Made by a program: the position numbers and the translations under genes. The notes below the pieces were generated by a model. It did not search any database. It was not told where the DNA came from and saw only the letters and a program-made list of their open reading frames with translations. DNA of 64,000 nucleotides from Spirochaetia bacterium (GTDB lineage: Bacteria; Spirochaetota; Spirochaetia; SZUA-6; Bin103): the NCBI GenBank assembly GCA_965203055.1, contig OZ241863.1, positions 3,776,001 through 3,840,000 on the forward strand, in the 5' to 3' direction. This document shows, piece after piece, positions 9,126-42,766 of the stretch; the first letter of the stretch is position 1; every line of letters starts with the position of its first letter.

Positions 9126-9224
9126 GTGGCTCCCTCCCGTTGGCGGGTACCGCGCGCCTGCCCGTTGCCGGTGGCTGGACAGCAGGCAAGGCTTGGTCCC
9201 ACTCTGCTGGCGGAGATTCTAGAC

Positions 9225-17052: not shown

Positions 17053-18156
17053 CCGCTCCCGAGGCCGAATTGCCGACCGCCTCGTTCGTGGAGTTCGGGA
17101 CCAACAAGACGGTTCCGACGGCTACCAAAGTGCGAGGTGGGTACTACACGCCTGCTGCCCTCGCCGATTATCTGTGCCGATGGGCGATACGAAATCGCTC
17201 GGACCGGGTGCTGGAGCCGAGCTGCGGCGACGGCAGCTTCGTGTCCGCGGCCGCGCCGCTGCTCGGCGACGACGGCTCGATTACCGCCGTGGAAATCGTG
17301 CCCGTGCAATACGCCGCCGAGCTGCGCGACCGGCTGCCCCGGCTGTTCGACGCCGTATTCGTCATCGCCTTCGACCGGCTGGTGTTCCCGGACATCCAGC
17401 AGGAGGTGCTGCTGCTGCTCGGCGAGGGCCGCAACCGGAATCCTCAGACGTACGGCAGACTGTACACTCGGCAAGTCGCCAACGGCAAAGCGCTGTTGTC
17501 GATGGCGCGAACGGCCGACCTCGTTTCGCACGTGCCGGAGCGGCACACGCATGCCGACATGAAGTGGACGTCGCTCTTCCTCGAAGACGACGAGTTCCGC
17601 GCCCTCAGCGACGCCGCAGAAAGCGGGGCGCTTGACCGCATGGGCGATTTGGCGGGCGTGGACGTCGGCATCGTGACCGGGCGCAACAGCTTCTTCGTCG
17701 TTACCGAAGGCACGGCGCAGCGGCTGGGGCTGGATGGCCGCGCGGTCGACGTGGTCGGCCGGACCGCCGCCCTCAAGTCGATTCGGTTTACCGCGGACGA
17801 CCTGCAGCGTTACGATCCACCGCGTGCGGGTCGCCGCGGGGGTAGACGTAGATATGCTCTGCGCGTCGATGGTGAACTCGCTTACCTTCGCCTGGGCCGA
17901 AGTGTGCGGGCGGAGTTACGGCGGCGGCGTGCTGGAACTGGAGCCGCGGGAAGCGGAACGACTGTTGATCCCGTATCGGTTCTCGGCAGGCATCGACGTC
18001 GAGTACGTCGACCAGCGCCTACGGGCCGGCGACCTCGAAGGCGTGCTGGATCACGGCGACCGCGCGCTCCTCAAGGACGGATGCGGATTCTCCGACCGGG
18101 ACGTGACGCGCGCCGCATGGAACAGACTACGATCAAGGCGCCATCGACGAAGATAG
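17053..18156 (+). pseudogene. Internally deleted N6-adenine DNA methyltransferase (Eco57I/TaqI-like) remnant
   Basis: RGGYYTP and VLEPSCGDGSF are present, but the frame jumps to VQYAAELR with no NPPY/F motif. VGIVTGRNSFF follows, then a frame change near 17811 to TIHRVRV...EVCGRSYGGGVLELEPREAE. No clear start codon. Confidence 0.8.
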
Positions 18157-18513
18157 AAAGAAGATGCGTCGGAAGGACCTGTCCCTTCAGTTTAACTAAC
18201 CCAAGACACGTCCTCAGCCCGGCACAAGTTGAACGCCGCTCAGCTACAGTGTATGTTTACGAAGTGTCCGATACACGGATCGCGAATGGCTGAGCAATGG
18301 CGGAGGTTGGTATGTTGAACATACGGTCCAGGAGGTAGTACCTTTTCTGGTACCTGCTGCGTCGGGAGCGCTCTCTCCTGAGGAGAATGCTCTGGCAACG
18401 ACGGCAGACTATAGGCGCCGTTTACGGTGCCGTACTAAATGGATCGAACGTGCCTATTAAGGGTTTGTGCGTTCGATTGATTGTTTGCTGTTGCTAACTT
18501 CGAGGAGGATTGA

Positions 18514-18923
18514 ATGGCAACAAAGAGGAATGCTACTCCGCGTAGCAGGACGACTACTCCGGGGCCGGCGCAAGCGGTGGCCAAGGAAACTTCTACGACG
18601 GCGGCGGAAGCTGCCAAGGAAGCTTCTTCGGGGCCGGGGAAAGTGTCCTTTCGGACACGATCGATGCATCGAAGCTGTCGGTCGCTCAGCTCCAGGATAT
18701 CCTGGCTGAGCGGCAGCAGGACGAAGAGCAAGAGTCTGCCGAAACAAAGGCAGACAAGCTGCTCACCGCTGTGCGCGCCTACAAGGCACAGCGGATCCGT
18801 CCTGGGGTCGTCGGGACCTTCAGCCCGGACGGCTCCACCGGTGGCGTGCAGCTTATGTTGCTGTACCGGGCCGGATCGATGCTGGTCTTCGACGCCTATT
18901 CGGATGTTGTGACCGAGGAGTAG
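18514..18923 (+). pseudogene. Probable disrupted N-terminal part of the downstream gene (or a small frameshifted ORF)
   Basis: ATG 18514 (MATKRNATPR...) then an apparent frameshift near 18640 into VLSDTIDASKLSVAQLQDILAERQQ...DVVTEE. Its TAG (18921-18923) is in frame with ATG 18930. Confidence 0.4.
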
Positions 18924-18929
18924 GCGGCG

Positions 18930-20405
18930 ATGTTCAACGAGGATAATGTCCCCGCTGGAGCGTTCGTCCGCATCAACGTCACGAAGAAGGCCAAGGCTGT
19001 GGTTGCGGTCCTTTCCCCGTATTCGAAGGTGGTCTATGTCACGCCGAATCCGAAGGATCAGACCAACAGGGCGCCCCATGAGGTTCCCTACAGCAAGGTT
19101 GCGCGGGTTTACAAGACCATCGACGCAGCCCGTGGGGATAAGATCAACCGGCGCGCGGATACTACGGTGTTCGAGCCGTCTGCGCGGTTGGCGTCTTTGG
19201 ACGAGGAAAAGTGGACCTCCCTGTATGGGGACGCCCTTTCGATCGCTGCGTACAATTTCGACACTGTACCTATCGGTGCCGTTGCCAGGATCCGTCTGTC
19301 ATCGACGCTTAACGTCGTCGTGCTTACCATCGTAGGCAAGGATGACGAGAAGGTATTCGTACATCCTCATCCAAAGAAGGATAAGGGTTCCTTAGCACTC
19401 TACGGAGCCAAGTACTCCAAGGTGCTCAAGCTGTACCGGACCTTGAAAGAAGCTTTGGCGGACCCCATCAACCAAGTTCCGTCCACAAAGATACTAGCTC
19501 CCCGTATGTCAGTTGCGGCTTTAGACGAAGCCGAATGGGAGGCAATTTACGGGGATACTTCCGAGGCGGAAGACATCATCGATCTCAGCCAGCTCTCCGA
19601 ACCCGCCCTTGACTTCGCCATTGATCTCCTGAGAGAACCCATCGACTCTCTTGATCTATCAATTCTAAACCAGCATCTTGTGCGCAGATGTTCTTTCAAA
19701 TCAAGATCAGACCGCGACTATTGGACGGTTTACAGACGAAAGATACAAAAGACTCTAAGTTGCGGAGCAATCTGTGGCTTCGACCTCCCACGATTCGTCG
19801 CCGACCGCTTGCTTAAATTACATCAAGTTTCGCTAATTGATCTATCCCATTACCTCGTCTTCAATGAAAGAAATGACCGCCTATCGACGATCATCAGAAG
19901 ATCCGACTATAGGAAAGTCTATACCGCATACATCAAATTTCTCAAAACACTTCGCAGATCGAGCCGCTACGGACGCCCATCTTCAAACAGGATCAAGTGG
20001 ATAGTGCCGACACCTCAAATGCAGCGGCAGCGTATCTACAGTTCTGATGATGACGTATGGTGTCATTGGATGCCGCTCGCTGTCGTTCAGCTTCTTCGCA
20101 GGTGGCAGCCACGTAGGATCAACTCACTACGCTTAGCCTTGTCCAGGCTTGCACAAGATATAGGAGGACAAAAGGTCTACTATCCTTGGTTTCCTACGTT
20201 CAATCTTGAAACGCGGTTCGTTCCGATACATGCGTTGTATCAATACGAACCATCAAGCCTCACACTCGGCGGCATAAAGGCACTACATAATTGCGGCCTG
20301 ACGTCGATAAACGACCTTCGGTGCCTCCATCCCCACGCTGTAGCCGCCGCGAAGGACCCAACCCAACCGCTTCTGCAGCTATATCGTGAGAATCATCCAA
20401 TCTGA
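18930..20405 (+). CDS. Hypothetical protein with two ~100-aa tandem repeats and alpha-CTD/HhH-like segments
   Basis: 491-aa ORF with GAGGAG RBS. Repeats share VP.GA..RI, YSKV...Y.T...A..D.IN and LDE..W...YGD. Also LLREPIDSLDLS and GIKALHNCGLTSINDL. Confidence 0.7.
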   Translation: MFNEDNVPAGAFVRINVTKKAKAVVAVLSPYSKVVYVTPNPKDQTNRAPHEVPYSKVARVYKTIDAARGDKINRRADTTVFEPSARLASLDEEKWTSLYGDALSIAAYNFDTVPIGAVARIRLSSTLNVVVLTIVGKDDEKVFVHPHPKKDKGSLALYGAKYSKVLKLYRTLKEALADPINQVPSTKILAPRMSVAALDEAEWEAIYGDTSEAEDIIDLSQLSEPALDFAIDLLREPIDSLDLSILNQHLVRRCSFKSRSDRDYWTVYRRKIQKTLSCGAICGFDLPRFVADRLLKLHQVSLIDLSHYLVFNERNDRLSTIIRRSDYRKVYTAYIKFLKTLRRSSRYGRPSSNRIKWIVPTPQMQRQRIYSSDDDVWCHWMPLAVVQLLRRWQPRRINSLRLALSRLAQDIGGQKVYYPWFPTFNLETRFVPIHALYQYEPSSLTLGGIKALHNCGLTSINDLRCLHPHAVAAAKDPTQPLLQLYRENHPI

Positions 20406-21763
20406 CGAGAAATTACCCTCCACCTTTCTTCCACTTCCTCGGGTCCGGGCAGCGGTATCAACATTGCCTGCCACTCGACTTTCAACTCCTCAAGGTTCGC
20501 GTAGTCATCTATCCCTACCTGGAACAAAAGGATCCTCTGGGCTACTTCCAATGCGCGTTTCCGATCCTCGCTACGCATTCTCCGCCTGCGCCCCCTAGCT
20601 AGTTCAGAATCTTCGACCAACAGGAGTCCTATCCAAGGAGGCATCCGCAGGTCCCATTCCACCTCCGCAAGCACCCTGATACAGGCGCGTACGTCTTGCT
20701 CAGTTGGTGAACTTGGATCAGGAAGACGCCGGTTCATCATGATTCTCGCTACGGAGGCAAATAATTCCTGCCCTATCGGCCAAAACAGAAGATGATCCGT
20801 ATGGCCATCCGGATGATCTAATTCTGCGTCGTGCTCACGCATCTTCGCAGGCTCGGAATTTAGCACATCAATCTCCGACAAGATAGCGCTCCAGTAAACC
20901 ATCAGCTCACTGAACATCCCGTCGAGCTCCTCTTCAGCCGGTCTGAATTGTCGGTAATCCCCCCTGCGCCTCCAAAGACGACCACGCTCCGGGGTATGTA
21001 ACAGCGTCTCATTCATGGCGTACAGTGTCTGAAGCGTGGTGAAATAGCTGTCACCAGAACGCAGGTTCTTACCCTTCGTCTTCAATTTAGGTGAAGTAGT
21101 CGGCGTACCCCTCCAAACAAAGAAGTCGTGCTCGATAATCAGACGTCGAGTTAGAATAGCGACAGCGTCGTCTTCATCCATAATAATGTTCGTATCTGCA
21201 TCCGTCGGCTTTGCGTATCGGTTGAGACTAGAGAAAATACGACGGTAGCTCTTCATAAACTCCGCTTCGTCAGTCTCTTCTCGGACGATCATTATCACCG
21301 ACACCTCTTCGTCTATAAAGCCCTCCGGAATTTCCGGCACATCCGCTTCGCCCTGCTCGATCAGCGTCTTAATGGCCTTCAGTCGATGCTGCCCGTCTAG
21401 TGCGAAATATCGTTGTCCCCCAATAAACGTAAGGACGCCAAACGAGTTGACCAAGTTTGCAGGTCTGAATAACTCAAATCGCGGATCATGGGCTATATCT
21501 ACAGGAATAAATTCCGGATTACCGCCGAGCGCAGCGACAACGATCGACGAAAAGAACCGATCATCCCGTCTTCCCAAATATTGGACGATCTCGTTCTTTA
21601 CGCGACTTTCATTCAGGGACCGTTGGATAGCGTCGTCCAACGTCTTGTTGCTATAGATCTCCGACGCGAAGCCTACTTCATTTACGATCTCCCTCATCGT
21701 CATCTTGACAACGTAGTATGTCCAGCTTCCCATACTTGCCTTCAGAGCCGGGTACAAATTCAT
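20393..21763 (-). CDS. DGQHR-domain protein, DndB family
   Basis: MGSWTYY, IQRSLNESR, FFSSIVVA, ALDGQHRLKAI and IFSSLNRYAKP. GGAGG RBS. Confidence 0.9.
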   Translation of the reverse strand: MNLYPALKASMGSWTYYVVKMTMREIVNEVGFASEIYSNKTLDDAIQRSLNESRVKNEIVQYLGRRDDRFFSSIVVAALGGNPEFIPVDIAHDPRFELFRPANLVNSFGVLTFIGGQRYFALDGQHRLKAIKTLIEQGEADVPEIPEGFIDEEVSVIMIVREETDEAEFMKSYRRIFSSLNRYAKPTDADTNIIMDEDDAVAILTRRLIIEHDFFVWRGTPTTSPKLKTKGKNLRSGDSYFTTLQTLYAMNETLLHTPERGRLWRRRGDYRQFRPAEEELDGMFSELMVYWSAILSEIDVLNSEPAKMREHDAELDHPDGHTDHLLFWPIGQELFASVARIMMNRRLPDPSSPTEQDVRACIRVLAEVEWDLRMPPWIGLLLVEDSELARGRRRRMRSEDRKRALEVAQRILLFQVGIDDYANLEELKVEWQAMLIPLPGPEEVEERWRVISRQIG

Positions 21764-21789
21764 CTGATCCTCCTATATCTATTTATTGC

Positions 21790-22380
21790 CTAACGGTCGT
21801 GTACGCCTATGGCCACCGGATCACCTATCGCGCCAGAGATCGATCCAGGCTGGTCGTTGGCGATCGGCCCGAAGCAGCGAATCAAGATTGCCTCATCGGC
21901 ACCAAGCCGTTCGGCCCCGCGACGGTGATACCAGAACTGCATAGATGCACCAAAACAACGCCGAGCTGCCTCTAATTTCACTGATGGGCTCCTGCAATGC
22001 TCCAGAAAACGCCGCCTCAGATTGCCGGTTTTACCGATATAGATCGGCGTCAACAGAATCGAAAACAGATCATTGTCGCGGTATTCTGACAGCCTCCTGC
22101 GACCTACCGGCGATGTGCAAACGAAGTATAGCCCGGACTGTCTGGCGGGCACAAGCACAGCTTCGTTCTCCACAAATCCGACCGAATTCCAAGCGTTACT
22201 GTCGCGCAGATCAGCCGGAACCTGCGCCCATAGCTCAGCGTCATACTGCCAGCCGTAGCTTAGCACGGCGACACCGTGAGCAACGACCACGAACCCCCAG
22301 CCGACCGGACGCTCAGCCAGTGTGCCGTCTGCCTCATACACCTCATCGTATCTCCCATCCACCAACCCAATATATCTCAT
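21790..22380 (-). CDS. GIY-YIG family nuclease
   Basis: SGLYFV...PIYIGKTGNLRRRFLEH...EAILI...N. Start codon uncertain. Confidence 0.8.
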   Translation of the reverse strand: MRYIGLVDGRYDEVYEADGTLAERPVGWGFVVVAHGVAVLSYGWQYDAELWAQVPADLRDSNAWNSVGFVENEAVLVPARQSGLYFVCTSPVGRRRLSEYRDNDLFSILLTPIYIGKTGNLRRRFLEHCRSPSVKLEAARRCFGASMQFWYHRRGAERLGADEAILIRCFGPIANDQPGSISGAIGDPVAIGVHDR

Positions 22381-22405
22381 TCAACAATCGTCAGGAAATC
22401 ACGCG

Positions 22406-24142
22406 TCACAGGCTGTCGAGAACCCGTGCTCCATCGGTAAGCGACGCAACGATCTTACGAAATAGCTCCGACTTTGACGCAAGGAGGTCATCGATCTTTG
22501 ACTCGACTGTTCCTTGAGACCTCAAGCGATAGACATAGACCGCCCGCTTCTGACCAATACGGTTAACTCGATCTCGAGCTTGGGCGTTGACAGCAGGGTT
22601 CCACCATTCGTTCAAGAATACAACATGGTTTGCTGCAGTGAGCGTAAGCCCCTCGGCGGTTGCTCGGATAGAACACAGCAGTACAAACGGATCTGACGAT
22701 GATTGGAACGCCTTCACGATACTCGATCTTGCCGCGGAATCAGTCTGGCCAGTAATCATGGCAACCGAGCTATTCCCATACCGATTGGTGACTTTCCGAC
22801 GGACTATACGCAGAGGCTCTAGTCTCCACGAGAATACTACAACTTTCTCTCCGAGTTCTCGTATTGCTTCAGTGATTACTACTGCTCGGTCTACTTTTGA
22901 GCTTTTCTTGGTCACCGGATCGAAGTCGCATATGCTGCGTAGCTTGTTGAATAAACTGATCCATAAATCGACGGTCGTGATCGATCCACTATTTGCGCGT
23001 ACTCTATCATATTCACGCCTCTGTTCGACCGATAATGGAATCATCTCTGTTCGTTCTAGGACAGTCGGAAGTTCCTCCGAAATCACCGTCCGCGGCCGCC
23101 GCAAAACATAGCCTGCCGCAAGTGTCCTAAGCGATGCCGGAGACAGATAACGGTCGCGTAGTGACACTCTTTTTCGATCGAGTAAGTGAAGGATAGCGGT
23201 CAAGTCGCCTGCATGGTTCTCCAAAGGCGTGCCAGACAGACCCCATGCAAATCGAGGATACAACTGAAGTGATGAAGAATAGTTTAGCGAATATGGATTC
23301 TTGAGCTTGTGTATTTCATCGAAAATTACAAGATCGAAAGACCGAGGATCAATTCGGTTTCCGCGAATAGCCTCGTAATTCGTAATTGCTACGTGGCACT
23401 GCGCCTTTATCAGACTCCACGCTTTAGGCTCCACGCTAGAGTATAACACCACCGCACACAACTGTGGTGCCCATAATTTGATCTCCGCTTCCCAGACACC
23501 AAGCAGTGACTTTGGGCAAAGGACGAGAGCGCTGTTGATCTTTCCAGACCTCTTCATTTCTTCCAATGCGGCAATCGCCTGCAATGTTTTTCCTAGCCCC
23601 ATGTCATCAGCGAGTATAGCCGCTGACCGGCCGCTAAGCCACTTAACGCCATATCCTTGGTGTCTTTTGAACGGAATATTGTCGGGACGCTTCATGAATC
23701 GCCAACGCCATAGCTCACCGAGGTTGAAGTATCGACGGCGCTCTGCCCGCCGGGTGACTCGGATAACGGGTGGATCTGTTTGTGGAGATAGCAATGTCAC
23801 TGATTCTCCGGTGTCAATGCGTTGTACGAGATCTGGTCGGCTGCCCTCAATATACTCGATAAGGTCCAGTATATCAGATACAAGACACTCGAACGTATCA
23901 TCCGAAAAGGCTATTGATTCAGCGGGCGCAGACGTGGTAGATGTGGCGGACGATAACCGAATTGTTAGGCCAAGTGAGGTTCGCTCAAGCAGGTAGCGGA
24001 TGGTTGGGCGCTCAGATGCTTGGCGTATACCGCTATCTTGTTGGACGTGAACCATCGGTGTCGCATGTAAACTATTGGTTCTGTGGACGCTGGATATTAA
24101 AGGTGTGGGACCCTTTCGACCTCTGTCTGTTAAAGATGACAT
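22406..24142 (-). CDS. SNF2-family (SF2) helicase/translocase
   Basis: HQGYGVKWL, ILADDMGLGKTLQAI, DEIHKLKN, LSGTPLEN, EGLTLTAANHVVF and WWNPAVNAQARDRVNRIGQ. Start codon uncertain. Confidence 0.92.
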   Translation of the reverse strand: MSSLTDRGRKGPTPLISSVHRTNSLHATPMVHVQQDSGIRQASERPTIRYLLERTSLGLTIRLSSATSTTSAPAESIAFSDDTFECLVSDILDLIEYIEGSRPDLVQRIDTGESVTLLSPQTDPPVIRVTRRAERRRYFNLGELWRWRFMKRPDNIPFKRHQGYGVKWLSGRSAAILADDMGLGKTLQAIAALEEMKRSGKINSALVLCPKSLLGVWEAEIKLWAPQLCAVVLYSSVEPKAWSLIKAQCHVAITNYEAIRGNRIDPRSFDLVIFDEIHKLKNPYSLNYSSSLQLYPRFAWGLSGTPLENHAGDLTAILHLLDRKRVSLRDRYLSPASLRTLAAGYVLRRPRTVISEELPTVLERTEMIPLSVEQRREYDRVRANSGSITTVDLWISLFNKLRSICDFDPVTKKSSKVDRAVVITEAIRELGEKVVVFSWRLEPLRIVRRKVTNRYGNSSVAMITGQTDSAARSSIVKAFQSSSDPFVLLCSIRATAEGLTLTAANHVVFLNEWWNPAVNAQARDRVNRIGQKRAVYVYRLRSQGTVESKIDDLLASKSELFRKIVASLTDGARVLDSL

Positions 24143-24942
24143 ATGGCGCAACCCTCTGCCGCTTCGATAGACTGGAGAGGGAATTCTTCCAGCAGGGTCT
24201 CGACGTCGTCCAATGAGCGTCCTTGCACCCATGTATAACGCTTGGTCCCGTTGGGGCGCTCATACGACTTCGCACTCGTGAATAGAGTTGGGTGCTCGTG
24301 GCGCAGGCGCTGCCACTCGCCGATCTGCTGGTAGAAGCAGAAGTAGCAACCGGAGCGGGAACGCCAGCGGTAGTAGTCGGGCAGGCCGATGCCGGACGTT
24401 TCCAGGATTTCCTTGACTGTCCCAAGGTCGATGCCATCGTCCTTGAATGGGTACACAGGAACAATGTTGGGACGGTCGGAGAACACTGGTGGCTTCTTAG
24501 GGGTGTAACCCTGCCGGTCTTCGTCGGCCCGGATGCCGATGTAGCTGAAGGCGGTGTCGGAACCGACGTAGCGCTCGAATGGTTCGATCTTCAACTTGCG
24601 CGTGCACCAGCGAGCCTGCGGGCTCGGCAGGAAGCCAGAGTACATCTCGTTAAGCACGAAGTCAAACGCCTTTCGCGTCGGCTTGCGAGTGACGTTCATG
24701 TAGTCGAGCGCGTTGATCCGATGAATCGGCTTGCCGAGCAGCGCTTCCAGCCTGTCCAGGTAGTCGTAGGTCTCGGGCAGCTCCGCGTCAGTGTCGCAGA
24801 ATACGTATTCGCTCGGTAGCTGCGGGTAGGTCTGCGTCAGGTAGATCGCCAACGCGGCCGAGTCCTTGCCGCCGGACACCGGGACGACGTGGCGGATAGA
24901 TGGATCAGCAAGCGCTTCAAGCGCTTCGTGCAGGTTAGCCAT
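24130..24942 (-). CDS. sspD: PAPS-reductase-family protein, SspD-like (DNA phosphorothioation)
   Basis: PP-loop VSGGKDS, RWCTRKLKI, GIRADE, SRSGCYFCFYQ and C-terminal GCAICHL. Follows the DUF4007 and ATPase genes. Confidence 0.85.
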   Translation of the reverse strand: MANLHEALEALADPSIRHVVPVSGGKDSAALAIYLTQTYPQLPSEYVFCDTDAELPETYDYLDRLEALLGKPIHRINALDYMNVTRKPTRKAFDFVLNEMYSGFLPSPQARWCTRKLKIEPFERYVGSDTAFSYIGIRADEDRQGYTPKKPPVFSDRPNIVPVYPFKDDGIDLGTVKEILETSGIGLPDYYRWRSRSGCYFCFYQQIGEWQRLRHEHPTLFTSAKSYERPNGTKRYTWVQGRSLDDVETLLEEFPLQSIEAAEGCAICHL

Positions 24943-27900
24943 CGGAGCTGACCTCCTCGGTGATGTGCTCTAGTGCATCCTCGACAATGGTGCGCGTCCG
25001 GTCCGGGCCGGCAACGGTGGCGATTGCGCGCAACGACGCCTGCAGCCTGGAGGTGGCGATGTCCACGACGGCCTGGCTGCGAACGCCGTCGGCAGTCGTC
25101 GAAAGGCTGAGCACGGCATCCTCCACTCGGCGTATCACGGCGCCGAGCTCTCGCTCAAACACCACGATGGAACTATCCTCCCACCGATCGATGCGCTTAC
25201 CGACGAGCAACGCGGCCAGGGCGTCGGCCATTGCCCGATCGGTATCGTAGCTCATGCCCGTCCGCGTTATCAAGGCGCGTGCAATGCCATCCTTGACCTC
25301 CTTCGCCACGCTGCCCGGAAAGAACTCGGCCCATGCGCCCACGACCTGACGAAGCGTTGCGGCCTGCCTGTTCTGCGCTAGAAATGCCGAGCGGATGGCG
25401 CGTTCGGCTGCTTCGTAGTTCCAGTGCACGACGCCCTCCATCTCTGTCTTGCAGTCGCTCAGCGCGTGCAGCAGATCATCAATGCTCGACCCGTTCGGAT
25501 CAAGTGCGTCGGGCAAAGCATTGAACAGCAACCGATACGGATCGATAGCCGTGGCGGACATGAGTCGGCCGAACGCCCGCCCTCGGGGCGAAAGATACCG
25601 CGACGTAAGCGCGCTGTGCGGGAGGGTGCTGCGCCACCGCATCAGTGCATCATGGCAGCGTCGCACCGGGTCAGCCTCCACCGCGCCATCTTCCGTGAAA
25701 CCGAACAGCGCGGCAACCCGGTCAAGGAATGCCTTCTGATCAAAGGTCAGTTCAGGGACCAGCACCTGGTACTCGGCCGGGTGGGCGGCCATCGCTTCGA
25801 TAGTCGAGGGAAGCAGGTCATTGACGTATTCCCCATTGATCCGGGTGATGCTGATCGGACCGGGAAACGCCCGCAACGCCGCCGCAAGCAGAATCGGGAC
25901 AATCCCTTCCCGTACACCGTACGGAGCTGCGCTGAGCAGAGAAGTCAGATCCCCCAATGGCTTGGGGCGTCCCCCAGGGACGGTCAGGAAGTCCCGCAGG
26001 TGCTTCCAGACATCACGCAACCCAGGATCCGCCAACTCCTCGGGCGCGGCATAACGCCATACCGAGCCGCCGTCTTCCCGTCCACCGTCGGTTCGATACA
26101 GACCGGTCATGAGCAGCACCGTCCGGAACATCGACATGTCGGGCCGATACCCTTCCAACCCCAGGTTCTCAGTACCCGAACTCTCGAGAATACCCAGAAC
26201 CAGCTTCTTGCGCGCGTTGACGACAACCGGGCGAGGCCGACGCCGCACGATCATCTCATTCTTGATGCGCGGCGTACGCGGGTATAGTGTCCGCATGATC
26301 GTCGAGAGTAGCTGCCGCAACTCCTTGGCCGACGCGATCTCATGGAACCGATTACCCCATAGATACTCCGGTCCTTCGGCGGAAGGCTGAGACATCCGGG
26401 CGACTTGTTGGCTGAGATACCCCTGCGAGTCGTCGATCATCTGCGCAAGCTCCGACTCGACGAGCGGGTCCTCGGCTAGCAGGCCGGTGTCCTGCCGCAA
26501 CAGTTGCAGCGCGCGCACTTCAAGCGCGTTCTCGGCGATCGGAGCGACATACCGTGGCAGCGCGACGATTACGCCGGTCTCCGGCGTCTCCGCAACGAGG
26601 CGCTTTCGAACTTCCTCCGTCTCGTCGTACGAATCGGGAATGACCACGTACAGCGTGCCGTCTGGCGCTGACGGCGGGAGCGCTTCCGCCACGCTAGCCG
26701 CAGTAATGACGGCCCCGGCGGCGACATAGCAAGTATCGAAGGATCGTTCGATACCGTACTTGACGTTGTAGTCAATCGGCTTCCACGGTGCCAGAGGCGC
26801 TTCTGAGGTCAGAAACGAGACGTGATCGAATCGTGGCCGCAACCGATCCTTCTCCTGATCGAGCCGCCCGCGAAGATCAAGATCGGTACCGTGCCAGACG
26901 GATACGCTGTCTGCGTTGCGTCGATAGAGCAGCAGCTTGGCGTCGATCAAGCGTATCACGCTGTTGCTCGCCGTCCCGTCCTTCCGGTACCCGGACACTG
27001 CGTACTCAAGCAGCCGCCGGCTGACGCGCGAACGCTCCCCGATCAAGCCAAGTCCGAGCAGGCAGGCGCACTTGAGTGCCTTCTCGTCGATGCCGCCTAC
27101 ATTGTGCAGTGCCGCCTCGGTCTCCAGCCACGTGTGATAGCTGCCGCCCGGCAGGGTGTCCGCGCGCATCGCGTCGGAGAAGTAGTCGTACAGGCTGTCC
27201 GGCGAAACGGGAGCGGCCGCATCAAGCGAGTTGAGGTAGGTGAACAGGGTCCGTTCGTTCTGGGCCACTCGGGCGGAGACTCGCGGCAGCAGATACAGGG
27301 TCAGTGGCTCCAGCGGATAGGAGTCGGCCAACGTCCGCTCCATCTCTTGTTTCGAGAAATCGCTGAAAAGGCCCACTTCACGGCATCTCCGTACGCTGCG
27401 GTCCACCAAGTCCGACGAGGGAGCGTTCGAGGACCTGATTTGGCGCACGATTCGGCTGACCAACTGGTACAGCTCCTTGCTGTCGTCGACGAACTGGACC
27501 GTCTCGAACCGTCCCTCGATCTTCTTCCACTCCCGCTGTACCGTCACCGAGGTGTTGGCGGCGTAGCGTACCAGTCCCTGATGGAGCAGTAGCGCAAAGG
27601 TCGTCGCCGCCCGCTTGGTGCGCGCGCAGAATTCCGCGAGCGTCTGTACGTCGGACAAGTCCGCCGCCGTTCCGCGGAGGATTAGCTCCTCGAGATGGCG
27701 GCCGAATTCATCCCAGACGATCGCCAAGCGGTCAATCGGCTCCGGGCAGTAGCGATCGCGTACCGCACTGAGCAACGCGATGACGTCGTCCATCGAATCA
27801 GCGCGCCGGCGAGACACCAGTGCCGCCGCGTTCCTGTTGCCCGTCCGCCGAAGCGACGTGATGAGAGACTCCTTGATGGCGGTCGGGAGATGTCGCTGGA

Positions 27901-28339
27901 AGCCGGATAGGGCGACGGTGGCACCATGTCTACCGAACAGGGGCATCTGCTCGCTGCCGATACGCGACCTCAGTTCGTTTGCAAGTTCGCCGTCGACTCC
28001 GGCGAACCGTTCGGTGACCCGCTCCAACACCACGTCCGCCGGGCGCAGATTCTCGACGACCTGAATGAAGAACGCCGCGGTGAGAGACTTGCCGGTTCCG
28101 TACGGCGCTACTACGAAGTAGCTTGAAGACCCATCAGGCTGCAGCAGCCACGACCGCAACAGCCGGGCGCTCTTCGCCGTGGGATGAAAGTGAGCGATAC
28201 GCTGCGGTGCGGCGCCGTCGAGCGTAATGTTGATGGAGCGCAGGCGCATCGCCGTTTCCAGCATGGATTCATCCGCGGCGGGAACAGCGGTGCCGTTCTT
28301 CCGTATCTTGGTCAAACTCCTGGTGCTCATCTCAGGCAT
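24935..28339 (-). CDS. sspC: Large P-loop ATPase, SspC-like
   Basis: Walker A APYGTGKS, Walker B IVWDEFGRHLE, EWKKIEGRF, YPLEP and AQNERTLFTYL. Overlaps both neighbours. Confidence 0.8.
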   Translation of the reverse strand: MPEMSTRSLTKIRKNGTAVPAADESMLETAMRLRSINITLDGAAPQRIAHFHPTAKSARLLRSWLLQPDGSSSYFVVAPYGTGKSLTAAFFIQVVENLRPADVVLERVTERFAGVDGELANELRSRIGSEQMPLFGRHGATVALSGFQRHLPTAIKESLITSLRRTGNRNAAALVSRRRADSMDDVIALLSAVRDRYCPEPIDRLAIVWDEFGRHLEELILRGTAADLSDVQTLAEFCARTKRAATTFALLLHQGLVRYAANTSVTVQREWKKIEGRFETVQFVDDSKELYQLVSRIVRQIRSSNAPSSDLVDRSVRRCREVGLFSDFSKQEMERTLADSYPLEPLTLYLLPRVSARVAQNERTLFTYLNSLDAAAPVSPDSLYDYFSDAMRADTLPGGSYHTWLETEAALHNVGGIDEKALKCACLLGLGLIGERSRVSRRLLEYAVSGYRKDGTASNSVIRLIDAKLLLYRRNADSVSVWHGTDLDLRGRLDQEKDRLRPRFDHVSFLTSEAPLAPWKPIDYNVKYGIERSFDTCYVAAGAVITAASVAEALPPSAPDGTLYVVIPDSYDETEEVRKRLVAETPETGVIVALPRYVAPIAENALEVRALQLLRQDTGLLAEDPLVESELAQMIDDSQGYLSQQVARMSQPSAEGPEYLWGNRFHEIASAKELRQLLSTIMRTLYPRTPRIKNEMIVRRRPRPVVVNARKKLVLGILESSGTENLGLEGYRPDMSMFRTVLLMTGLYRTDGGREDGGSVWRYAAPEELADPGLRDVWKHLRDFLTVPGGRPKPLGDLTSLLSAAPYGVREGIVPILLAAALRAFPGPISITRINGEYVNDLLPSTIEAMAAHPAEYQVLVPELTFDQKAFLDRVAALFGFTEDGAVEADPVRRCHDALMRWRSTLPHSALTSRYLSPRGRAFGRLMSATAIDPYRLLFNALPDALDPNGSSIDDLLHALSDCKTEMEGVVHWNYEAAERAIRSAFLAQNRQAATLRQVVGAWAEFFPGSVAKEVKDGIARALITRTGMSYDTDRAMADALAALLVGKRIDRWEDSSIVVFERELGAVIRRVEDAVLSLSTTADGVRSQAVVDIATSRLQASLRAIATVAGPDRTRTIVEDALEHITEEVSSDG

Positions 28340-29255
28340 GCACCAACTCCCTGGCAACGACGTCGAAGTGCCGCGCCAGCAGCCTCGGGGCCGGCGTACG
28401 GTCGAAGCGAAGCTGTCGGTCGCCGGCAAGGCCGCTCATGGCAAGTGGCGCGTCGGCGCCGTTCGCTTCCAAGTCCACCAGATGTTCAAAGAGCGCGTCG
28501 GACGACAGCGCCAGTACCTGTGCCGGGCCACTCTCCATCCGCTGCAGGTCGTGCAGCGTCACGTCGACGGTGCCGGCGCTCTCACCCATCATCAGGTCCG
28601 GAGTCTGCAAGGCGTACAACAATACCTGCGAAGGTATGGACTTGCGACGACGGTTCAGTTCGTAGTAGCCGGATGCGCGGAAGTGACGGATGATCCTCAG
28701 CTCCTGAAACGGACAGTCGATTTCCTCCTCCGGGTCCTTACGCCGGTAGGGCACTTCGACCGCATAGCTTCCCAGGAAGCAGCTCACGTCGCGCTCCAAC
28801 GTCTTACGCGTGGCCGAGCGCCGCGAGCTCACGCGATCATGCTGTTCGAGCTGGGCCACTACCGTGGCTCGTTCGAATCGGCTTGATGCATAGTGGTTGA
28901 AGAACCAGTGCCACGTTGCCGCGTGAGCCGGGGTGCGCACCAATTTGATATGCAGGAACCACCACGTGCCGGGATCGAGAAACCATGGATCGTGGCGCGC
29001 GACCACCTCGCCAAGCTCAGAGACCGCCAAACGGGGTTGCCCGTCGCGACGGCCGCGGCCTCGGCGCTCGATCTTTTCTGCCAAGCCGGTGGCCAGCAGC
29101 CAGTGCTCGATGGACTTCGCCATGTTTCGGCCCACTCCGAGAATGTCCGCGACGTAGGGGTTGTCGAACTTGCTCGGATCCTCCCGGAGCAGCGCGAGCC
29201 CCTTTGCCAGCCAGCCCTCGCGGATGAAGAAGGTCTGATGTCCGCCAAACCGCAT
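28332..29255 (-). CDS. sspB: DUF4007 family protein, SspB-like
   Basis: MRFGGHQTFFIREGWLAKG, LGVGRNMAKSIEHWL, DPWFLDPGTWWFLH and CPFQELRII. Confidence 0.88.
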   Translation of the reverse strand: MRFGGHQTFFIREGWLAKGLALLREDPSKFDNPYVADILGVGRNMAKSIEHWLLATGLAEKIERRGRGRRDGQPRLAVSELGEVVARHDPWFLDPGTWWFLHIKLVRTPAHAATWHWFFNHYASSRFERATVVAQLEQHDRVSSRRSATRKTLERDVSCFLGSYAVEVPYRRKDPEEEIDCPFQELRIIRHFRASGYYELNRRRKSIPSQVLLYALQTPDLMMGESAGTVDVTLHDLQRMESGPAQVLALSSDALFEHLVDLEANGADAPLAMSGLAGDRQLRFDRTPAPRLLARHFDVVARELVHA

Positions 29256-29256
29256 G

Positions 29257-30411
29257 CTACGCCGCTCCAATACGGTGCAGACGAGACACCAAGTCCCGGT
29301 AGGCGTCGATGACGCAACGCGCTCCGCGTTCGGCTTCTTCCGGCGTGTTGAGAACACCGAACGAGAATCGGAGCGAAGCGTATGCCTCCGTCTCCGAGAG
29401 GCCCATCGCGGTAAGCACGTGCGACGGCGTGGGCCGCGCGGTCGTACACGCGGAGCTCTGCGAGCAGTAGAGCTCGCGGTCGTCCAGGGCGGCGATGAGC
29501 ATCGTGCCGTCGATGTCGGGAAAGCGCAGATTCGAGGTATTCCCCACTCGGTGATGACGGTCACCGTTGACCGTCACCCCCGGTTCGGCGGCAAGGACCG
29601 CCTGCTCGAAGGTGTCGCGGCATGCCGTCAGCAAGGCGGTGACGCCGGTCAGGTCCCGCACTCGGTCCGCCGCGGCGGTGCCGAATCCGACGGCGCCGAT
29701 CAGATTTTCGGTGCCGCCGCGCAGACCCTGTTCCTGATCCCCCCCGCCGACGAGCGGCTGCAGCACCGACGGGTCGCGGGCGTACAGGGCGCCGCAGCCG
29801 GTCGGGCCGTGTATCTTGTGCGCGGTCACGCTCAACAGATCCGGGCCATGCTGCCGGCCGACGTCGACCGGGAGCTTGCCGAGCGCCTGCGCGGCGTCGC
29901 AGTGGTACAGGGCGCCGGCTTGATGACTGATCTCCGCTACCGCCTCCACCGGTTGGACGACGCCGGTTTCGTTGTTCACGGACTGCACGGACACGAGCGC
30001 GGTGTGCGCGTTGACCATATCGGCCAATCGATCAAGGTCGATGCGGCCGGATTTCGCTACCGGCGCTTCATGCACCACGTAGCCGCGCCGGCTGAGCAGC
30101 GCGGCGTTTGCCGTCACGGATGAGTGTTCGACCGCGCTGACGATGATCTCGTCGCGCTCCCCGCGGGTCTGCGCCGCGGCGACGGCCATGGCGTTCGCCT
30201 CCGACCCGCTCGCCACGAACAAGACGCATTCGGATCGCGCCCCGAGTGCCGCGGCCACCTGATCGCGCGCCTTCTCAAGCAGGGCGCGCGCCTCATGACC
30301 GAGGCGGTGCGGGCTTGACGGGTTGCCAACCGGACCGGCGATCAGCGATTCGACGCGGGCTCGCACGGCGGGGCTCAAGAACGTGGTAGCGTTGTTGTCG
30401 AGGTAGATCAT
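29257..30411 (-). CDS. sspA: Cysteine desulfurase (IscS/DndA/SspA-like)
   Basis: MIYLDNNATT, GNPSS.H, NNETGV, HCDAAQ, PLP lysine in HKIHGP, RGGTEN and catalytic Cys in SQSSAC. Confidence 0.9.
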   Translation of the reverse strand: MIYLDNNATTFLSPAVRARVESLIAGPVGNPSSPHRLGHEARALLEKARDQVAAALGARSECVLFVASGSEANAMAVAAAQTRGERDEIIVSAVEHSSVTANAALLSRRGYVVHEAPVAKSGRIDLDRLADMVNAHTALVSVQSVNNETGVVQPVEAVAEISHQAGALYHCDAAQALGKLPVDVGRQHGPDLLSVTAHKIHGPTGCGALYARDPSVLQPLVGGGDQEQGLRGGTENLIGAVGFGTAAADRVRDLTGVTALLTACRDTFEQAVLAAEPGVTVNGDRHHRVGNTSNLRFPDIDGTMLIAALDDRELYCSQSSACTTARPTPSHVLTAMGLSETEAYASLRFSFGVLNTPEEAERGARCVIDAYRDLVSRLHRIGAA

Positions 30412-30472
30412 CGTTTCATCGCCCGGCCAACCAAGACGGTATAGACCGTACCACATCGGTTTCTGGAAGTCA

Positions 30473-31927
30473 CTACGCCGGCCTTCCAGTAGACGCCGCC
30501 CACGCTCGCGGCCGCAGGTTGCGCTCGCGCACGATCAGGCCAAACGGTTCGTTATGCATCAGGACCCTCCTGCCCAATACAACGGCCCGTTCGTCCGTGC
30601 TGCCTTCATCGAAGCCGAGAATCTGCTTCCCGATGAGCAGTTCCGGCTCCGCGTTCGTCGAGTGGTCGAAGAATCGCACCTGCTGACTCTGCAGGTCGAT
30701 CTTCACCCGCGACCTCAGGCGCGGCCGCGCCTCCCGCACGTCGCTGAGCGAGAACAGGGAGAGGCGCGGCGATGTCTTGTGGATCTTGATCACGTCCGCG
30801 CGGTCGAGGTCGCCTGAGAACAACTCGCCAAGGCGCGCGTAGATCTGCAACGTGGGGTCAAGGGACGTCAGATCGCGCCGGGCGACGAAGTAGCCGTCGG
30901 CCGTATTCACCCCGACCGGAGCGTCCTCGCATAGCCGCGCCACCCGCTCCGCATCGCCCGCCGCGAACAGGTGCTCGTCGCTCAATTGCTTGAGGTGGCT
31001 GTAACTGCGGAAGTAGTAGCGAATGTCGTAGCGGGACGTGGCCGGCAGGTCGCGCAGCCGCGGCACCCCGCGGAACCGGCAGATCGCCATGAACGTCAGG
31101 AACTGATTGGTATGGCGGCGCCGTTGCTCCGCGAGCTGATCCTGCGCCAGCGCGCCGGAAGCTGCCTCCCACAGATCGGCAGGTGCAAGACCATACTCTG
31201 CGGCGACCGGCAGCGCGGCGGTTTCGCCGGCCGCGGGTGGACGAGCTCGGGCCGCCGCGAAGTCGACGTACGCCGACCACTCCTCCGCGTGCTCCGTCTG
31301 AAAGGCCGACATGAGTGCGGTTCGCAGCACGCGCTTGCGCTCCCGAGGGATGCCGCGGACGAGCGGCACGGAACGCTGAATGCGATTGAGCAGGAAGGCA
31401 TGGGCATCGGCGCTCTGTCTGAAGATCAGAAAGACGCCCGCTTCAAGCGGGATCGGCGCGACGCCGAGGACCTCTTCAAGGTACCGTCCCGCCTCTTCCT
31501 GGTGGTAGTACTTCTGAAAGGTCTGACGCGACGTAAGTAATCCGTCCCCATAGGGTTGCGCTTCCCCGGAATAGGTCGCGGAGCCGACCAGGACGGCGAC
31601 GCACAGGCATCCACCGGCGAGATCGAACGCCCGCCGCAGGGCGTCGGCCCGTTCGGCCGGCCGCTCGATGACGTTGAGCACGTACCCCAGGTTGACCACT
31701 GCCGCGCCGCGCCGCGCTTCGTCCGGCCGGTGCGCCGGGTCCCAGCCGTGCGCGTCGTAGCCGAGCGACCGCAGGAAGCGCACGTCGTCGCCGAGGCCGC
31801 AGCCGTAGTCGAAGAAGGTGTGTTCCGGCGTGAGGACGCCGTTGCCGATGAGCAGTTGCACGGGCCGGGACAGGTCCGATCGCGCTATCGCGGTCCGGTC
31901 ACGCCGTACTTCCACCGAGCTACCCAC
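30473..31927 (-). CDS. DNA phosphorothioation-associated putative methyltransferase (TIGR04096-like), catalytic part
   Basis: RTAIARSDLSRPV, SAM motif FDYGCGLGDD, GWDP, VVNLGYVLNVIE and DGLLTSRQTFQKYY. Confidence 0.85.
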   Translation of the reverse strand: MGSSVEVRRDRTAIARSDLSRPVQLLIGNGVLTPEHTFFDYGCGLGDDVRFLRSLGYDAHGWDPAHRPDEARRGAAVVNLGYVLNVIERPAERADALRRAFDLAGGCLCVAVLVGSATYSGEAQPYGDGLLTSRQTFQKYYHQEEAGRYLEEVLGVAPIPLEAGVFLIFRQSADAHAFLLNRIQRSVPLVRGIPRERKRVLRTALMSAFQTEHAEEWSAYVDFAAARARPPAAGETAALPVAAEYGLAPADLWEAASGALAQDQLAEQRRRHTNQFLTFMAICRFRGVPRLRDLPATSRYDIRYYFRSYSHLKQLSDEHLFAAGDAERVARLCEDAPVGVNTADGYFVARRDLTSLDPTLQIYARLGELFSGDLDRADVIKIHKTSPRLSLFSLSDVREARPRLRSRVKIDLQSQQVRFFDHSTNAEPELLIGKQILGFDEGSTDERAVVLGRRVLMHNEPFGLIVRERNLRPRAWAASTGRPA

Positions 31928-32447
31928 CCGTGCGCAACAACTTGTGGTCCCGGATCGTCAAGCCGCGCCGTTCGAGCTGCCTCGACCACCCACGTTCGTG
32001 CCCGATGGTGTTCGGTTCCGAGAACAGCCCGGCCCGCTCCTCCTGACCGGTGAGCGCCGCGAAGCGCCGGTGGTCCGGGTCCGATGCATCTATCAGCAGC
32101 TCCTTGCGATGCAGGATCGGGCGGTTGCCGTTCGGTGGGTACCGTCGTATGCGTGCCGTACCCTCCTCGAGGTCGATACTTGCCGCGACCGCCAGCGCCG
32201 GATGCTCGTCGTCGAGGAACTTCGGGTAGTGGAGCAGAGAGACCTGCTTCCGGTGCGGCGAAAGTTTGCAGACGTTCCACGGGAACGCAGCCCCGGCCGC
32301 GACCGCCCACGAGCGCACCGCGGCCAACAAGTCCGCATCGTGCCGCTCAAGGGCATCGCGATGAAGATACACGGCTCCGCCGACGCGCTTCCCCACCGGC
32401 AGCCGCCGCACACGCTCCGCAAGAACCTCCGGAGTGATGCTCCCCAC
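31920..32447 (-). CDS. N-terminal domain of the PT-associated methyltransferase (separate ORF or frameshifted part)
   Basis: GKRVGGAVYLH, VSLLHYPKF...HPAL and NRPILHRKELLI. 8-nt overlap with the MTase ORF. Confidence 0.75.
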   Translation of the reverse strand: MGSITPEVLAERVRRLPVGKRVGGAVYLHRDALERHDADLLAAVRSWAVAAGAAFPWNVCKLSPHRKQVSLLHYPKFLDDEHPALAVAASIDLEEGTARIRRYPPNGNRPILHRKELLIDASDPDHRRFAALTGQEERAGLFSEPNTIGHERGWSRQLERRGLTIRDHKLLRTGG

Positions 32448-32511
32448 GCCCCCCGGAGTCTACTACGCCGCCCGCGCCCGCTTCGAGTGGATTCTTAGAT
32501 GAGGCACCACG

Positions 32512-32970
32512 TCAGCCGCCTCCGTCCAGCCGATGCGCGGACGATGGCGGACCGTCAAGTGCCAGGACGGTCAGCAATTCGTCTGCCGTCACGATAGACA
32601 CCGGCGCTGCCCGAAAGCCGTCATGGTCGCGCGTGACGAGGTAATCGGCGCCGCATCGACGTGCGCAGCAGAGTTGAACGGCGTCCTCGAAGTCGGCGCC
32701 GTTCGCGGCCAACGCCTCATCAAGGAGCCGAGTATCCACCTCGACGGGGCGAAATACCGATCGGATCATCTGCAGTGATCGATAGGCCGGATCGGCGCCA
32801 CCGTGCCTGCGTGCAATGTAGAACACGTTGTTGAAGCTGATGGCAGACACGAAACCGTGGTGAGCGCCGGTCTCCACCAGTGTCCATACCCGAGCCGACG
32901 ATCGGTAGAACGGCTCCCGCTGCAACAGCACGTCGAGCAGAACATTCGTATCCAGGAAGAGCCGGAGAAT
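32512..32970 (-). CDS. PIN-domain (VapC-like) toxin
   Basis: The frame extends upstream of the tracked ORF as ILRLFLDTNVLLDVL; also DFEDAVQ and LVTRD. No ATG/GTG found before the DTN motif (ATT at 32970). Confidence 0.85.
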   Translation of the reverse strand: MLRLFLDTNVLLDVLLQREPFYRSSARVWTLVETGAHHGFVSAISFNNVFYIARRHGGADPAYRSLQMIRSVFRPVEVDTRLLDEALAANGADFEDAVQLCCARRCGADYLVTRDHDGFRAAPVSIVTADELLTVLALDGPPSSAHRLDGGG

Positions 32971-32972
32971 GG

Positions 32973-33245
32973 CTACGCTCCGTGAGCGGGGCGGTGCAGG
33001 TACTTCTCCTCCAGCGCCTCTTCGATCAGCTCCCGGTCGGATCGATGCGAGTGCTGCGGCACCAGCCCGCTCGCCTGCTTGGTTATCGGTCCAAGATCGG
33101 TTGGATCGGCCGTCCGTACCCGATCGAGCGCGCGTATCACCTGCGCAAACAGCGCCGAGACCGTCATCCGGCGGGACTTCGCCAGCCGCTTCGCCAAAGC
33201 GACCAGCTCTTCCTCAGCACTCAAAGTCAGTTTCACTCGACTCAT
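32973..33245 (-). CDS. Antitoxin (DUF6364/RHH-like)
   Basis: MSRVKLTLSAEEELVALAKRLAKSRRMTVSALF...GPITKQASGLV...EEALEEKY. Directly upstream of the PIN gene. Confidence 0.8.
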   Translation of the reverse strand: MSRVKLTLSAEEELVALAKRLAKSRRMTVSALFAQVIRALDRVRTADPTDLGPITKQASGLVPQHSHRSDRELIEEALEEKYLHRPAHGA

Positions 33246-33327
33246 ATACGTATCATGGCGACATGGAGATACGTATGCAACCGCGCGCAGTGCCGAACAC
33301 AGATCGACAACGCGCAGTTTGGCTGAT

Positions 33328-36522
<3,195 letters not shown>

Positions 36523-41960: not shown

Positions 41961-42003
41961 GCCTCTCGCGGGGAATCGAACCCGCCGTGCTCCAAGAGGA
42001 GGC
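41961..42003 (-). ncRNA. Degenerate tRNA-like mini element (copy C)
   Basis: Minus strand GCCTC CTC-TTG-GAG CACG GCGGG TTCGATT CCCCGC GA GAGGC, followed by the leader ATACCGGGACCACTTCCCGG shared with copy B. Confidence 0.5.
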
Positions 42004-42081
42004 TGAAATCACCCTTGATCCCATTCCCATATCAAAGTGGCCTTGTGCTCTACTCCGGTGTGCAGGAATCGAACCCCGCTT

Positions 42082-42597: not shown

Positions 42598-42649
42598 TTC
42601 AGGTCTCCTCCTGTGGCCATTATTAATCACCTGATGGCCAATCTGGTAG

Positions 42650-42720: not shown

Positions 42721-42725
42721 ATTGA

Positions 42726-42743: not shown

Positions 42744-42766
42744 GGTCGGTCGATCACTTCCCTTGG

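Follow-up and report, generated by a model that had tools for sequence, protein, structure and literature searches.

What restricts phage where a phosphorothioate (PT) modification module stands without either of its known partners? The question is raised by a stretch of 64,000 nucleotides (nt) from a Spirochaetia bacterium (contig OZ241863.1, positions 3,776,001 to 3,840,000), referred to here as the window, in which an SspABCD modification module is followed by genes for a SNF2-family helicase, a GIY-YIG nuclease and a protein with a DGQHR motif. A known partner (SspE, SspFGH or both) was counted in only 196 + 199 + 36 (431) of 2,678 sspBCD loci (PMC8092258). We consider it probable, if well short of certain, that the locus is an Ssp PT defence island whose effector arm is an exchangeable cassette of GIY-YIG, DndB-family DGQHR and SNF2 proteins with a convergent helper, and the cassette is probably a third phage-restricting arm of Ssp systems. 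We found no description of a GIY-YIG, DndB-family and SNF2 partner of Ssp in the full-text literature searched, a scope that places supplements (Table S2 of PMC8092258) and subscription papers outside it.

The host genome is a single contig of 4.56 Mb with 68.8% GC, and the locus occupies a lower-GC island between the genes for enoyl-CoA hydratase (which ends at 17052) and isoleucyl-tRNA synthetase (33328-36522). An earlier note on this DNA had described nine co-directional open reading frames (ORFs) here, and all nine are present on the minus strand, in the order 175-amino-acid (aa) gene, TIGR04096 methyltransferase, sspA, sspB, sspC, sspD, SNF2, GIY-YIG and DGQHR. The identities proposed for them were right apart from that of the 175-aa ORF, which had been called an N-terminal methyltransferase domain and matches the C-terminal part of TIGR04096 (Table 1). 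The overlaps reported between ORFs were an artefact of longest-ORF starts, while the close spacing stood: likely starts leave small gaps or short overlaps. Missing from that list was a tenth gene, convergent and on the plus strand, which belongs to the cassette in a subclade. The SspABCD module itself was recovered in full, with all four proteins recognized in one cluster by PADLOC (307-506 bits).

Neither known partner was found with this module. None of the 10 cluster proteins matched a PADLOC model of SspE, SspF, SspG or SspH or the family PF03235, and there is no DUF262/DUF1524 protein among them. A canonical partner elsewhere in the genome was likewise not found with the models tried. Nine matches to PF03235 (DUF262, GmrSD_N) are all at least 130 kb from the cluster; the eight of these proteins that were scanned had HEC-05, HEC-06/Orf5, NsnA and PDC-M55C as best matches, none SspE, and the unscanned ninth, at 371 aa, is half as long as the SspE models with their 749-793 positions. 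For SspFGH, a subset of PADLOC's models was run against the whole genome. Two SspF models found only two AAA_16/STAND-like ORFs of 1350-1394 aa, at about 70 bits; one SspH model, whose control rings in 8 of 14 genomes, matched only by its positions 1406-1762 (the FtsK-like end) on an 864-aa ORF; and one SspG model had no match, a weak negative, as its control rang in no genome. We rejected the trio as a form of SspE, given the lack of a DUF262/DUF1524 protein in the cluster and of any genomic DUF262 protein with SspE as best match among the eight scanned, and as SspFGH, given that the Walker A protein SspF and the FtsK-like SspH are unlike the trio and their models found nothing in the cluster. 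As a separate observation, nine DUF262 proteins make an unusually large ParB-like nuclease gene set for a 4.56-Mb genome.

We next looked for the trio in other bacteria. A scan by GIY-YIG alignment, with one genome per species, yielded nine loci, in Vicinamibacterales, Luteitalea, Azotimanducaceae, Pseudohongiella, other Gammaproteobacteria and a Dehalococcoidia metagenome-assembled genome (MAG), that is, in Acidobacteriota, Pseudomonadota and Dehalococcoidia. In all nine, the DGQHR gene directly follows the GIY-YIG gene on the same strand, and SspB, SspC and SspD are encoded within 10 kb; SNF2 is present in seven. The two others, an Azotimanducaceae MAG (L018) and the Dehalococcoidia MAG (L022), hold sspBCD, GIY-YIG and DGQHR with no detectable SNF2 gene, and L022 is also without the helper. 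The nuclease-DGQHR pair may be the minimal unit.

A metagenome scan by DGQHR alignment, in which the best 80 of 275 confirmed relatives were followed up, added 15 loci with at least 3 kb on both flanks (two entries, L052 and L053, look like one locus filed twice). All 15 carry SspD and SspC, 14 carry SNF2, 12 SspB, 9 SspA, 3 the methyltransferase and 2 a gene like the convergent tenth one, so that SNF2 is found in 21 of the 24 well-flanked loci from the two scans. The pairing of nuclease and DGQHR protein is near-obligate: by tblastn, 58 of 68 testable metagenome loci have a GIY-YIG gene immediately upstream of DGQHR, and with a profile 66 of 68 do, the exceptions being L030, which has no GIY-YIG gene, and L061, where the domain is in a longer ORF 3.3 kb upstream, and a GIY-YIG homolog was found in 87 of 90 sources. 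The place of the motor gene is freer. Of the 80 metagenome loci, 31 have it downstream of DGQHR and co-directional, 11 have it downstream but convergent, and 2 share the upstream position seen in the window. Cassette loci span several phyla and four gene orders, and a gene set that returns in one phylum after another is far from a chance arrangement. The trio thus keeps company with sspBCD in genomes and metagenomes alike; together with the confirmed SspABCD module and the lack of a known partner, this recurrence supports the earlier suggestion that the genes after sspD form a different restriction or abortive module.

The exception at L061 is itself of interest. Its positions 5416-9943 hold a 431-aa ORF with a C-terminal GIY-YIG-like domain, a 414-aa DndB-family protein (PF14072, 98.5 bits) and a 655-aa protein of no assigned family. 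This second pair precedes the DGQHR ortholog, which has no adjacent nuclease gene of its own.

Base composition and gene trees show that the cassette has been exchanged between ssp modules. GC content is 48-55% over window positions 18000-24000, 61-69% in the ssp genes and 70-78% in the backbone, and GC at third codon positions follows the same steps (0.48-0.61 in the cassette, 0.76-0.82 in ssp and 0.85-0.95 in the backbone). A sample of 400 other genomes from the phylum contained no DGQHR ortholog at E<=1e-60. Of 40 closer relatives, G017, a genome of the same family and another genus, had the best match, at 45-46% identity. G017 carries the 175-aa gene, the methyltransferase and SspA-D in the same order at 71-89% aa identity. 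After this module, it has a convergent operon of GIY-YIG, DGQHR (45%) and SNF2 (40%), in an orientation that differs from that in the window. Nucleotide homology between the two (76-81%) runs from 31522 to about 24290 and ends some 160 nt before the sspD stop, and this end coincides with a fall in GC from about 62% to about 50%.

We built maximum-likelihood trees of 23 loci for DGQHR and SspD and a FastTree tree for SNF2. In the DGQHR tree, the window groups with two Vicinamibacterales loci, L015 and L016 (support 97/97), and G017 with L091 (100/100). The SNF2 tree has the same supported clades, again placing the window with L015/L016 (96). The SspD tree instead pairs the window with G017 as its sister (100/97), within a clade that includes L035, L046 and L063 (100/100). 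Pairwise identities over 22 loci correlate best between DGQHR and GIY-YIG (Spearman coefficient 0.76) and less well between these two and SspD (0.45 and 0.52), figures that are descriptive only, as the loci are kin. DGQHR and SNF2 are co-inherited, and because their trees agree while that of SspD differs, and because the G017 ssp module carries another variant of the trio, we regard the trio as an exchangeable cassette. We read the presence of the same kind of cassette again at the sspD end after replacement as selection for the pairing.

These data bear on whether the cassette might be a free-standing, PT-independent defence system that merely shares defence islands with ssp. It does move as its own unit with its own GC content, and among 29 metagenome loci of at least 6 kb, four show no ssp gene. 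Those four, however, each have one short flank, and the other 25 do show one; where both flanks reach 3 kb or more, SspD is present in every one of 24 loci, which represent several phyla and four gene orders. After an exchange, a cassette of the same kind is again found at the 3' end of sspD. Mere co-location in an island is rarely so constant. We judge this explanation to be quite improbable.

Public sequencing runs cover the junction. In run X1, a 6400-nt contig ends at 24330; in run X8, one contig bridges 24327-24330 without a difference, and another record is unlike the window before 24327. This hints, weakly, that natural populations hold alternative cassettes side by side. In two runs, contig depth was lower across the cassette than across ssp, but depths of this kind do not allow genes to be ranked, and nothing was drawn from them.

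The small protein of the cassette is a member of the GIY-YIG superfamily by its residues, by PF01541 matches of its family and by fold. Taken alone, the window protein scores 16.1 bits against a PF01541 cut-off of 22.6; all 22 aligned family members match PF01541 at E<=0.1, the best at 4.7e-6. Invariant in 22 sequences are Y85, Y114, G116, R124, H128, E163 and N175, the residues to be expected in such a fold, among which the tyrosines, arginine, glutamate and asparagine are the presumed catalytic ones. T4 endonuclease II (EndoII) was the best sequence-profile match in the PDB (E 0.0037). In the AF2 (AlphaFold 2) model, the core has a predicted local distance difference test score (pLDDT) of 86-97, and by VIA-align it superimposes on EndoII with Z 8.7 and a root-mean-square deviation of 2.8 over 101 residues, followed by the UvrC N-terminal domain (8.5), R.Eco29kI (6.9), PD-T4-3 (6.4) and Hpy188I (4.6). 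The plant Grx N-terminal domain 2lwf (Z 7.5) is also among the top rows, and the next chain is at Z 3.7. The gene likely starts at an in-frame GTG at 22260 (V-L-S-Y-G-W-Q), since family members are typically about 157 aa and begin M-L-N-Y-G-W-Q. The family is small, with 33 clusters at E<=0.001.

Homing endonucleases are common among GIY-YIG enzymes, and one could imagine a selfish nuclease of this type that spreads the cassette into ssp loci, with defence incidental. The sharp junction inside the 3' end of sspD at which the cassette was replaced would suit such an element, as would the ends or branch points that contigs from two of four runs show at 24327-24330. The nuclease has, on the other hand, co-evolved over the long term with DGQHR in a fixed pairing, its structural neighbours are EndoII, UvrC and restriction enzymes, and the gene order around the junction varies. 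We therefore think homing very unlikely indeed.

The DGQHR protein belongs to the DndB family, scoring above the curated cut-offs of PF14072 and TIGR03187 (Table 1). Its DGQHR motif (D123-R127) is invariant in 22 sequences, in a family with a mean column identity of 64%. Of 8000 proteins scored with a profile, 1585 reached E<=0.001; PF14072 is present in every one of the best 120, and relatives bear only the public names 'DGQHR domain-containing protein' or 'DndB'. We rejected the protein as DndB proper, because it reaches 51.2 bits against a cut-off of 328 for the equivalog TIGR03233 and its neighbours are ssp genes, not dndCDE. It consists of an N-terminal domain that may be ParB/Srx-like and a helical C-terminal half (about 190-456), for which the structural search gave no clear match. 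With the model of the whole protein (pLDDT 77.8), the six best of 48,161 chains were all ParB/Srx proteins: sulfiredoxin (Z 5.8), SspE (6jiv_A, 5.6, 126 aligned), BrxU (5.4), PadC (5.4), KorB (5.3) and ParB-N (5.0). The N-terminal domain aligned with DndI (9jfl_A) at Z 3.9 over 119 residues. These Z values from a predicted model are modest; they agree with the Pfam assignment and are not independent proof of it. Against PDB sequences, the DGQHR profile found chance-level matches only, at E 0.25 or worse.

The SNF2 protein has intact motifs I and II, its GLGKT and DEIH sequences being readable in the translation. Its best PADLOC matches are the helicases ZorD, DpdE and DrmD (up to 171.8 bits with the DpdE models), and it is the helicase core alone that matches. 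It lies far below the NCBIfam equivalog cut-offs (ZorD 117.1 against 1500, DrmD 79.5 against 610 and DpdE 69.4 against 500), and we rejected it as any of these named defence helicases on that ground. Two starts are candidates, ATG 24142, which overlaps the sspD stop by 13 nt, and ATG 24055; alignments with close homologs begin at about residue 75-82 of the long ORF.

The tenth gene converges on the DGQHR gene with a 13-nt overlap and encodes 491 aa. The last 220 or so residues define a small family whose typical members have about 255-270 aa, with only 50 representative clusters among 1.84 billion proteins. A homolog of this C-terminal module is present in six of the nine genome loci by tblastn, and by profile the family appears in 17 of the 90 sources, always convergent on DGQHR. 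The N-terminal 260 residues have no relatives beyond one weak match and contain an internal duplication, as read from the translation. No Pfam family was found for the protein or for 21 scanned relatives, and no PADLOC family for the protein. Leads from a protein atlas towards RNA-polymerase alpha-CTD-like proteins (scores 0.81-0.82) were sub-threshold and were not relied on. We count this protein as an optional helper.

How might such a set of proteins restrict phage? The earlier note proposed a translocase plus nuclease gated by PT status, and we infer a mechanism of that kind. SspA-D and the accessory TIGR04096 methyltransferase pair would mark host DNA. The ParB/Srx-type nucleoside triphosphatase (NTPase) domain of the DGQHR protein would be a DNA-bound switch that reads PT status, like the N-terminal domains of SspE and DndI, and would license or restrain the co-evolving GIY-YIG nickase. 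Because a DndB-family protein is strictly paired and co-evolving with a separate nuclease of another fold, we see in the two proteins a putative NTPase switch and nickase on two polypeptides, which would be an analogue of the one-chain combination of ParB-like NTPase and nuclease in SspE, DndI and GmrSD. If the proteins form a complex, the SNF2 motor could carry it along the duplex, and in this way unmarked (phage) DNA would be located and damaged. Helicases supply DNA movement in DISARM, Dpd and Zorya. The mode would be either attack on unmodified DNA, as in SspFGH and DndI, or PT-activated, as in SspE.

Precedent for the switch comes from SspE and DndI, single chains in which a DUF262 domain (ParB-like, in the superfamily of DndB) is joined to an HNH nickase and PT-stimulated NTPase activity controls the nickase (PMC11662687). 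In both, the PT-sensing tyrosine precedes a QR motif. The sspE gene has been called the equivalent of DndB (PMC10853773), and a DndB-like protein binds ATP and GTP (PMC12704722).

The same family membership can be turned another way. The cassette might serve modification, with the DGQHR protein as a DndB- or DpdB-like repressor or NTPase, GIY-YIG nicking DNA for sulfur insertion and SNF2 spreading the machinery. DndB is an ATP-dependent repressor of dnd and DpdB a ParB-like ATPase for base insertion (PMC10853773, PMC12839542), the window protein shares PF14072 with DndB, and the cassette is always beside sspBCD. Its score, however, is a small fraction of the DndB equivalog cut-off, and IscS and SspBCD sufficed for PT-dependent protective effects in Escherichia coli (PMC8092258). 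Moreover, the cassette is exchanged independently of the ssp module, as restriction partners are, and a strictly paired nuclease with a helicase whose best PADLOC matches are ZorD, DpdE and DrmD resembles an effector arm. A role in modification thus appears unlikely to us.

Several points weigh against the effector-arm reading that we prefer. The loci were anchored on cassette genes, and they show that the cassette implies ssp, not what share of ssp loci has the cassette. SNF2 is absent from two of the nine genome loci and one of the 15 well-flanked metagenome loci, and the motor is thus not obligatory. A search of proteins of 458-2000 aa turned up no GIY-YIG domain fused to a partner, which is weak evidence, proteins of 344-457 aa being outside the search. 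The structural link between DGQHR and SspE is weak: Z values of 5.0-5.8 may reflect a common arrangement (Z<8 is not decisive), Foldseek with the DGQHR model returned nothing at E<=0.001, and an hhalign comparison with the DUF262 proteins of this genome gave no alignment beyond the DGQ[HQ]R motif (probability 9.6%). The position of the PT-sensing tyrosine before the QR motif of SspE and DndI appears to be isoleucine (I46) in the DGQHR family, an assignment read from the family alignment without structural superposition; PT, if sensed at all, may therefore be sensed differently. Finally, the role given to DndB in the literature is that of a transcriptional regulator and not that of an effector (PMC10853773, PMC12704722).

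We also entertain a more far-reaching version of the effector-arm reading, as a tentative possibility that may well be wrong: the cassette would be a general PT reader that can be plugged into any ssp module, in which a ParB-fold NTPase clamp senses sulfur itself and not a sequence motif and restrains the GIY-YIG nickase on marked DNA, driven by SNF2. Either way, the cassette is a concrete, widespread, multi-phylum candidate reader of sulfur marks with clear catalytic residues to mutate. Two related genomes with nearly the same ssp module and different cassette variants form a natural experiment that suggests an interchangeable reader, and such interchangeability bears on how PT, present at part of its sites, is told from non-self. 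The logic of ParB-like NTPase plus nuclease, split into two proteins with another nuclease fold, would make switch and blade separable in vitro. If the general-reader version is true, the cassette would supply the restriction arm still missing from a sizeable share of the ~84% of sspBCD loci with no known partner (2,247 of 2,678; PMC8092258), and would be the first PT-based restriction with a chromatin-remodeller-type motor.

The features of the locus are collected in Table 1. In the modification module, the 175-aa protein aligned with residues 326-482 of the neighbouring methyltransferase in a direct BLASTP comparison, an alignment that was not significant (E 0.69). Because G017 holds a 72% identical copy in the same position, we consider the ORF to be a real separate gene. 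A homolog of the TIGR04096 methyltransferase is present in 3 of the 15 well-flanked metagenome loci, in 1 of the 9 genome loci and in G017. For SspB, we took as start the methionine at which the family match sets in, residue 104 of the long ORF, and the true start of SspC is probably some 100-165 nt inside the longest ORF. The sspC gene has no slippery G-run, as no homopolymer of 8 nt or longer occurs at 18000-33500. A scan of 17000-33600 found promoter-like sites at shuffle level and 18 terminator-like sites against 10.9 expected, and neither defines the operon ends.

Table 1. Genes of the ssp operon and cassette, with their positions in the window and the matches on which each assignment rests
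Feature	Position	Strand	Evidence
175-aa homolog of the methyltransferase C terminus, first operon gene	31920..32447	-	TIGR04096 positions 312-477 of 478, 96.2 bits
DNA phosphorothioation-associated putative methyltransferase	30473..31927	-	TIGR04096 369.4 bits (cut-off 150)
SspA/DndA-type cysteine desulfurase	29257..30456	-	PADLOC SspA 359.9 bits; Aminotran_5 219.9 bits
SspB (DUF4007)	28332..29255	-	PF13182 201 bits; PADLOC SspB 317.2 bits
SspC ATPase, longest ORF	24935..28429	-	PADLOC SspC 506 bits, residues 63-1104; BrxC-PglY 202.9 bits
SspD PAPS-reductase-like sulfurtransferase	24130..24942	-	PADLOC SspD 307.1 bits; PF01507 (PAPS_reduct) 39 bits
SNF2-family helicase/translocase	22406..24142 (longest ORF to 24232)	-	PF00176 120.8 bits; PF00271 (Helicase_C) 57.4 bits
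GIY-YIG nuclease, core ~156 aa	21790..22260 (longest ORF to 22380)	-	PF01541 family matches; AF2 model
DGQHR protein, 456 aa, DndB family	20393..21763	-	PF14072 95.8 bits (cut-off 29.1); TIGR03187 104.1 bits (cut-off 58.85)
Convergent 491-aa protein	18930..20405	+	C-terminal module recurs beside DGQHR/SNF2

The edges and flanks of the island hold other genes of note. Just upstream of the ssp operon, at 32512-33407 on the minus strand, are genes for a PIN-domain protein (PF13470, 50.5 bits) and a DUF6364 protein (32.9 bits), which look like a VapBC-type toxin-antitoxin pair at the island edge; a search of G017 over about 12 kb to each side of the ssp locus gave no homolog of either. At the other edge, a 140-aa ORF (17734-18156, plus strand) matches only the C-terminal domain of M.Eco57I-type methyltransferases (PF22837, 31.2 bits) and is probably what is left of an older restriction-modification gene. 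A second low-GC stretch (52-60%) at 42000-46000 contains tRNA-Pro (42649-42720), a DDE transposase gene (43555-44667; PF01609, 58.9 bits) and a G13 homopolymer (44742-44754), and looks like another insertion beside a tRNA gene. In the backbone flank, at 5560-8076 (minus strand) and 9126-15355 (plus strand), are a family B DNA polymerase (PF00136, 135.8 bits) and a pair of PD-(D/E)XK / UvrD-type helicase-nuclease genes, which we presume to resemble AdnAB.

How does this locus compare with known systems? The SspABCD-SspE system is reportedly that of Xiong and colleagues (2020). It shares with the window the SspA-D module and an effector that combines a ParB-superfamily NTPase domain, with a DGQ-x-R motif, and a DNA nickase (PMC8092258, PMC11662687). 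SspE, however, is one chain (DUF262 and a DUF1524 HNH domain), whereas the window has two proteins, one of the DndB family and one GIY-YIG, together with SNF2 and an optional helper. SspFGH is likewise a three-gene partner of sspBCD that adjoins the modification genes and includes an ATP-using, translocase-like component, but SspF is a Walker A protein and SspH has an FtsK-like C terminus, and as described there neither resembles the trio (PMC8092258). In the IscS-DndBCDE-DndI system, a PT-stimulated ParB-like ATPase controls a nickase, as we propose here; DndI differs in serving a Dnd (double-strand PT) module and in being a single chain with an HNH nuclease and no helicase (PMC11662687). The Dpd 7-deazaguanine system also combines a DGQHR-type ParB-like protein, DpdB, with a SNF2 protein, DpdE, in a modification-based defence island, although its modification chemistry is another and DpdB stands on the modification side (PMC12839542).

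T4 endonuclease II, R.Eco29kI, PD-T4-3 and Hpy188I, the enzymes that the window nuclease matches best in structure, share only 12-23% identity with it over 84-107 aligned residues. Unlike EndoII and these restriction enzymes, the window family has an insert of about 28 residues between its GIY and YIG elements and an obligate DGQHR neighbour.

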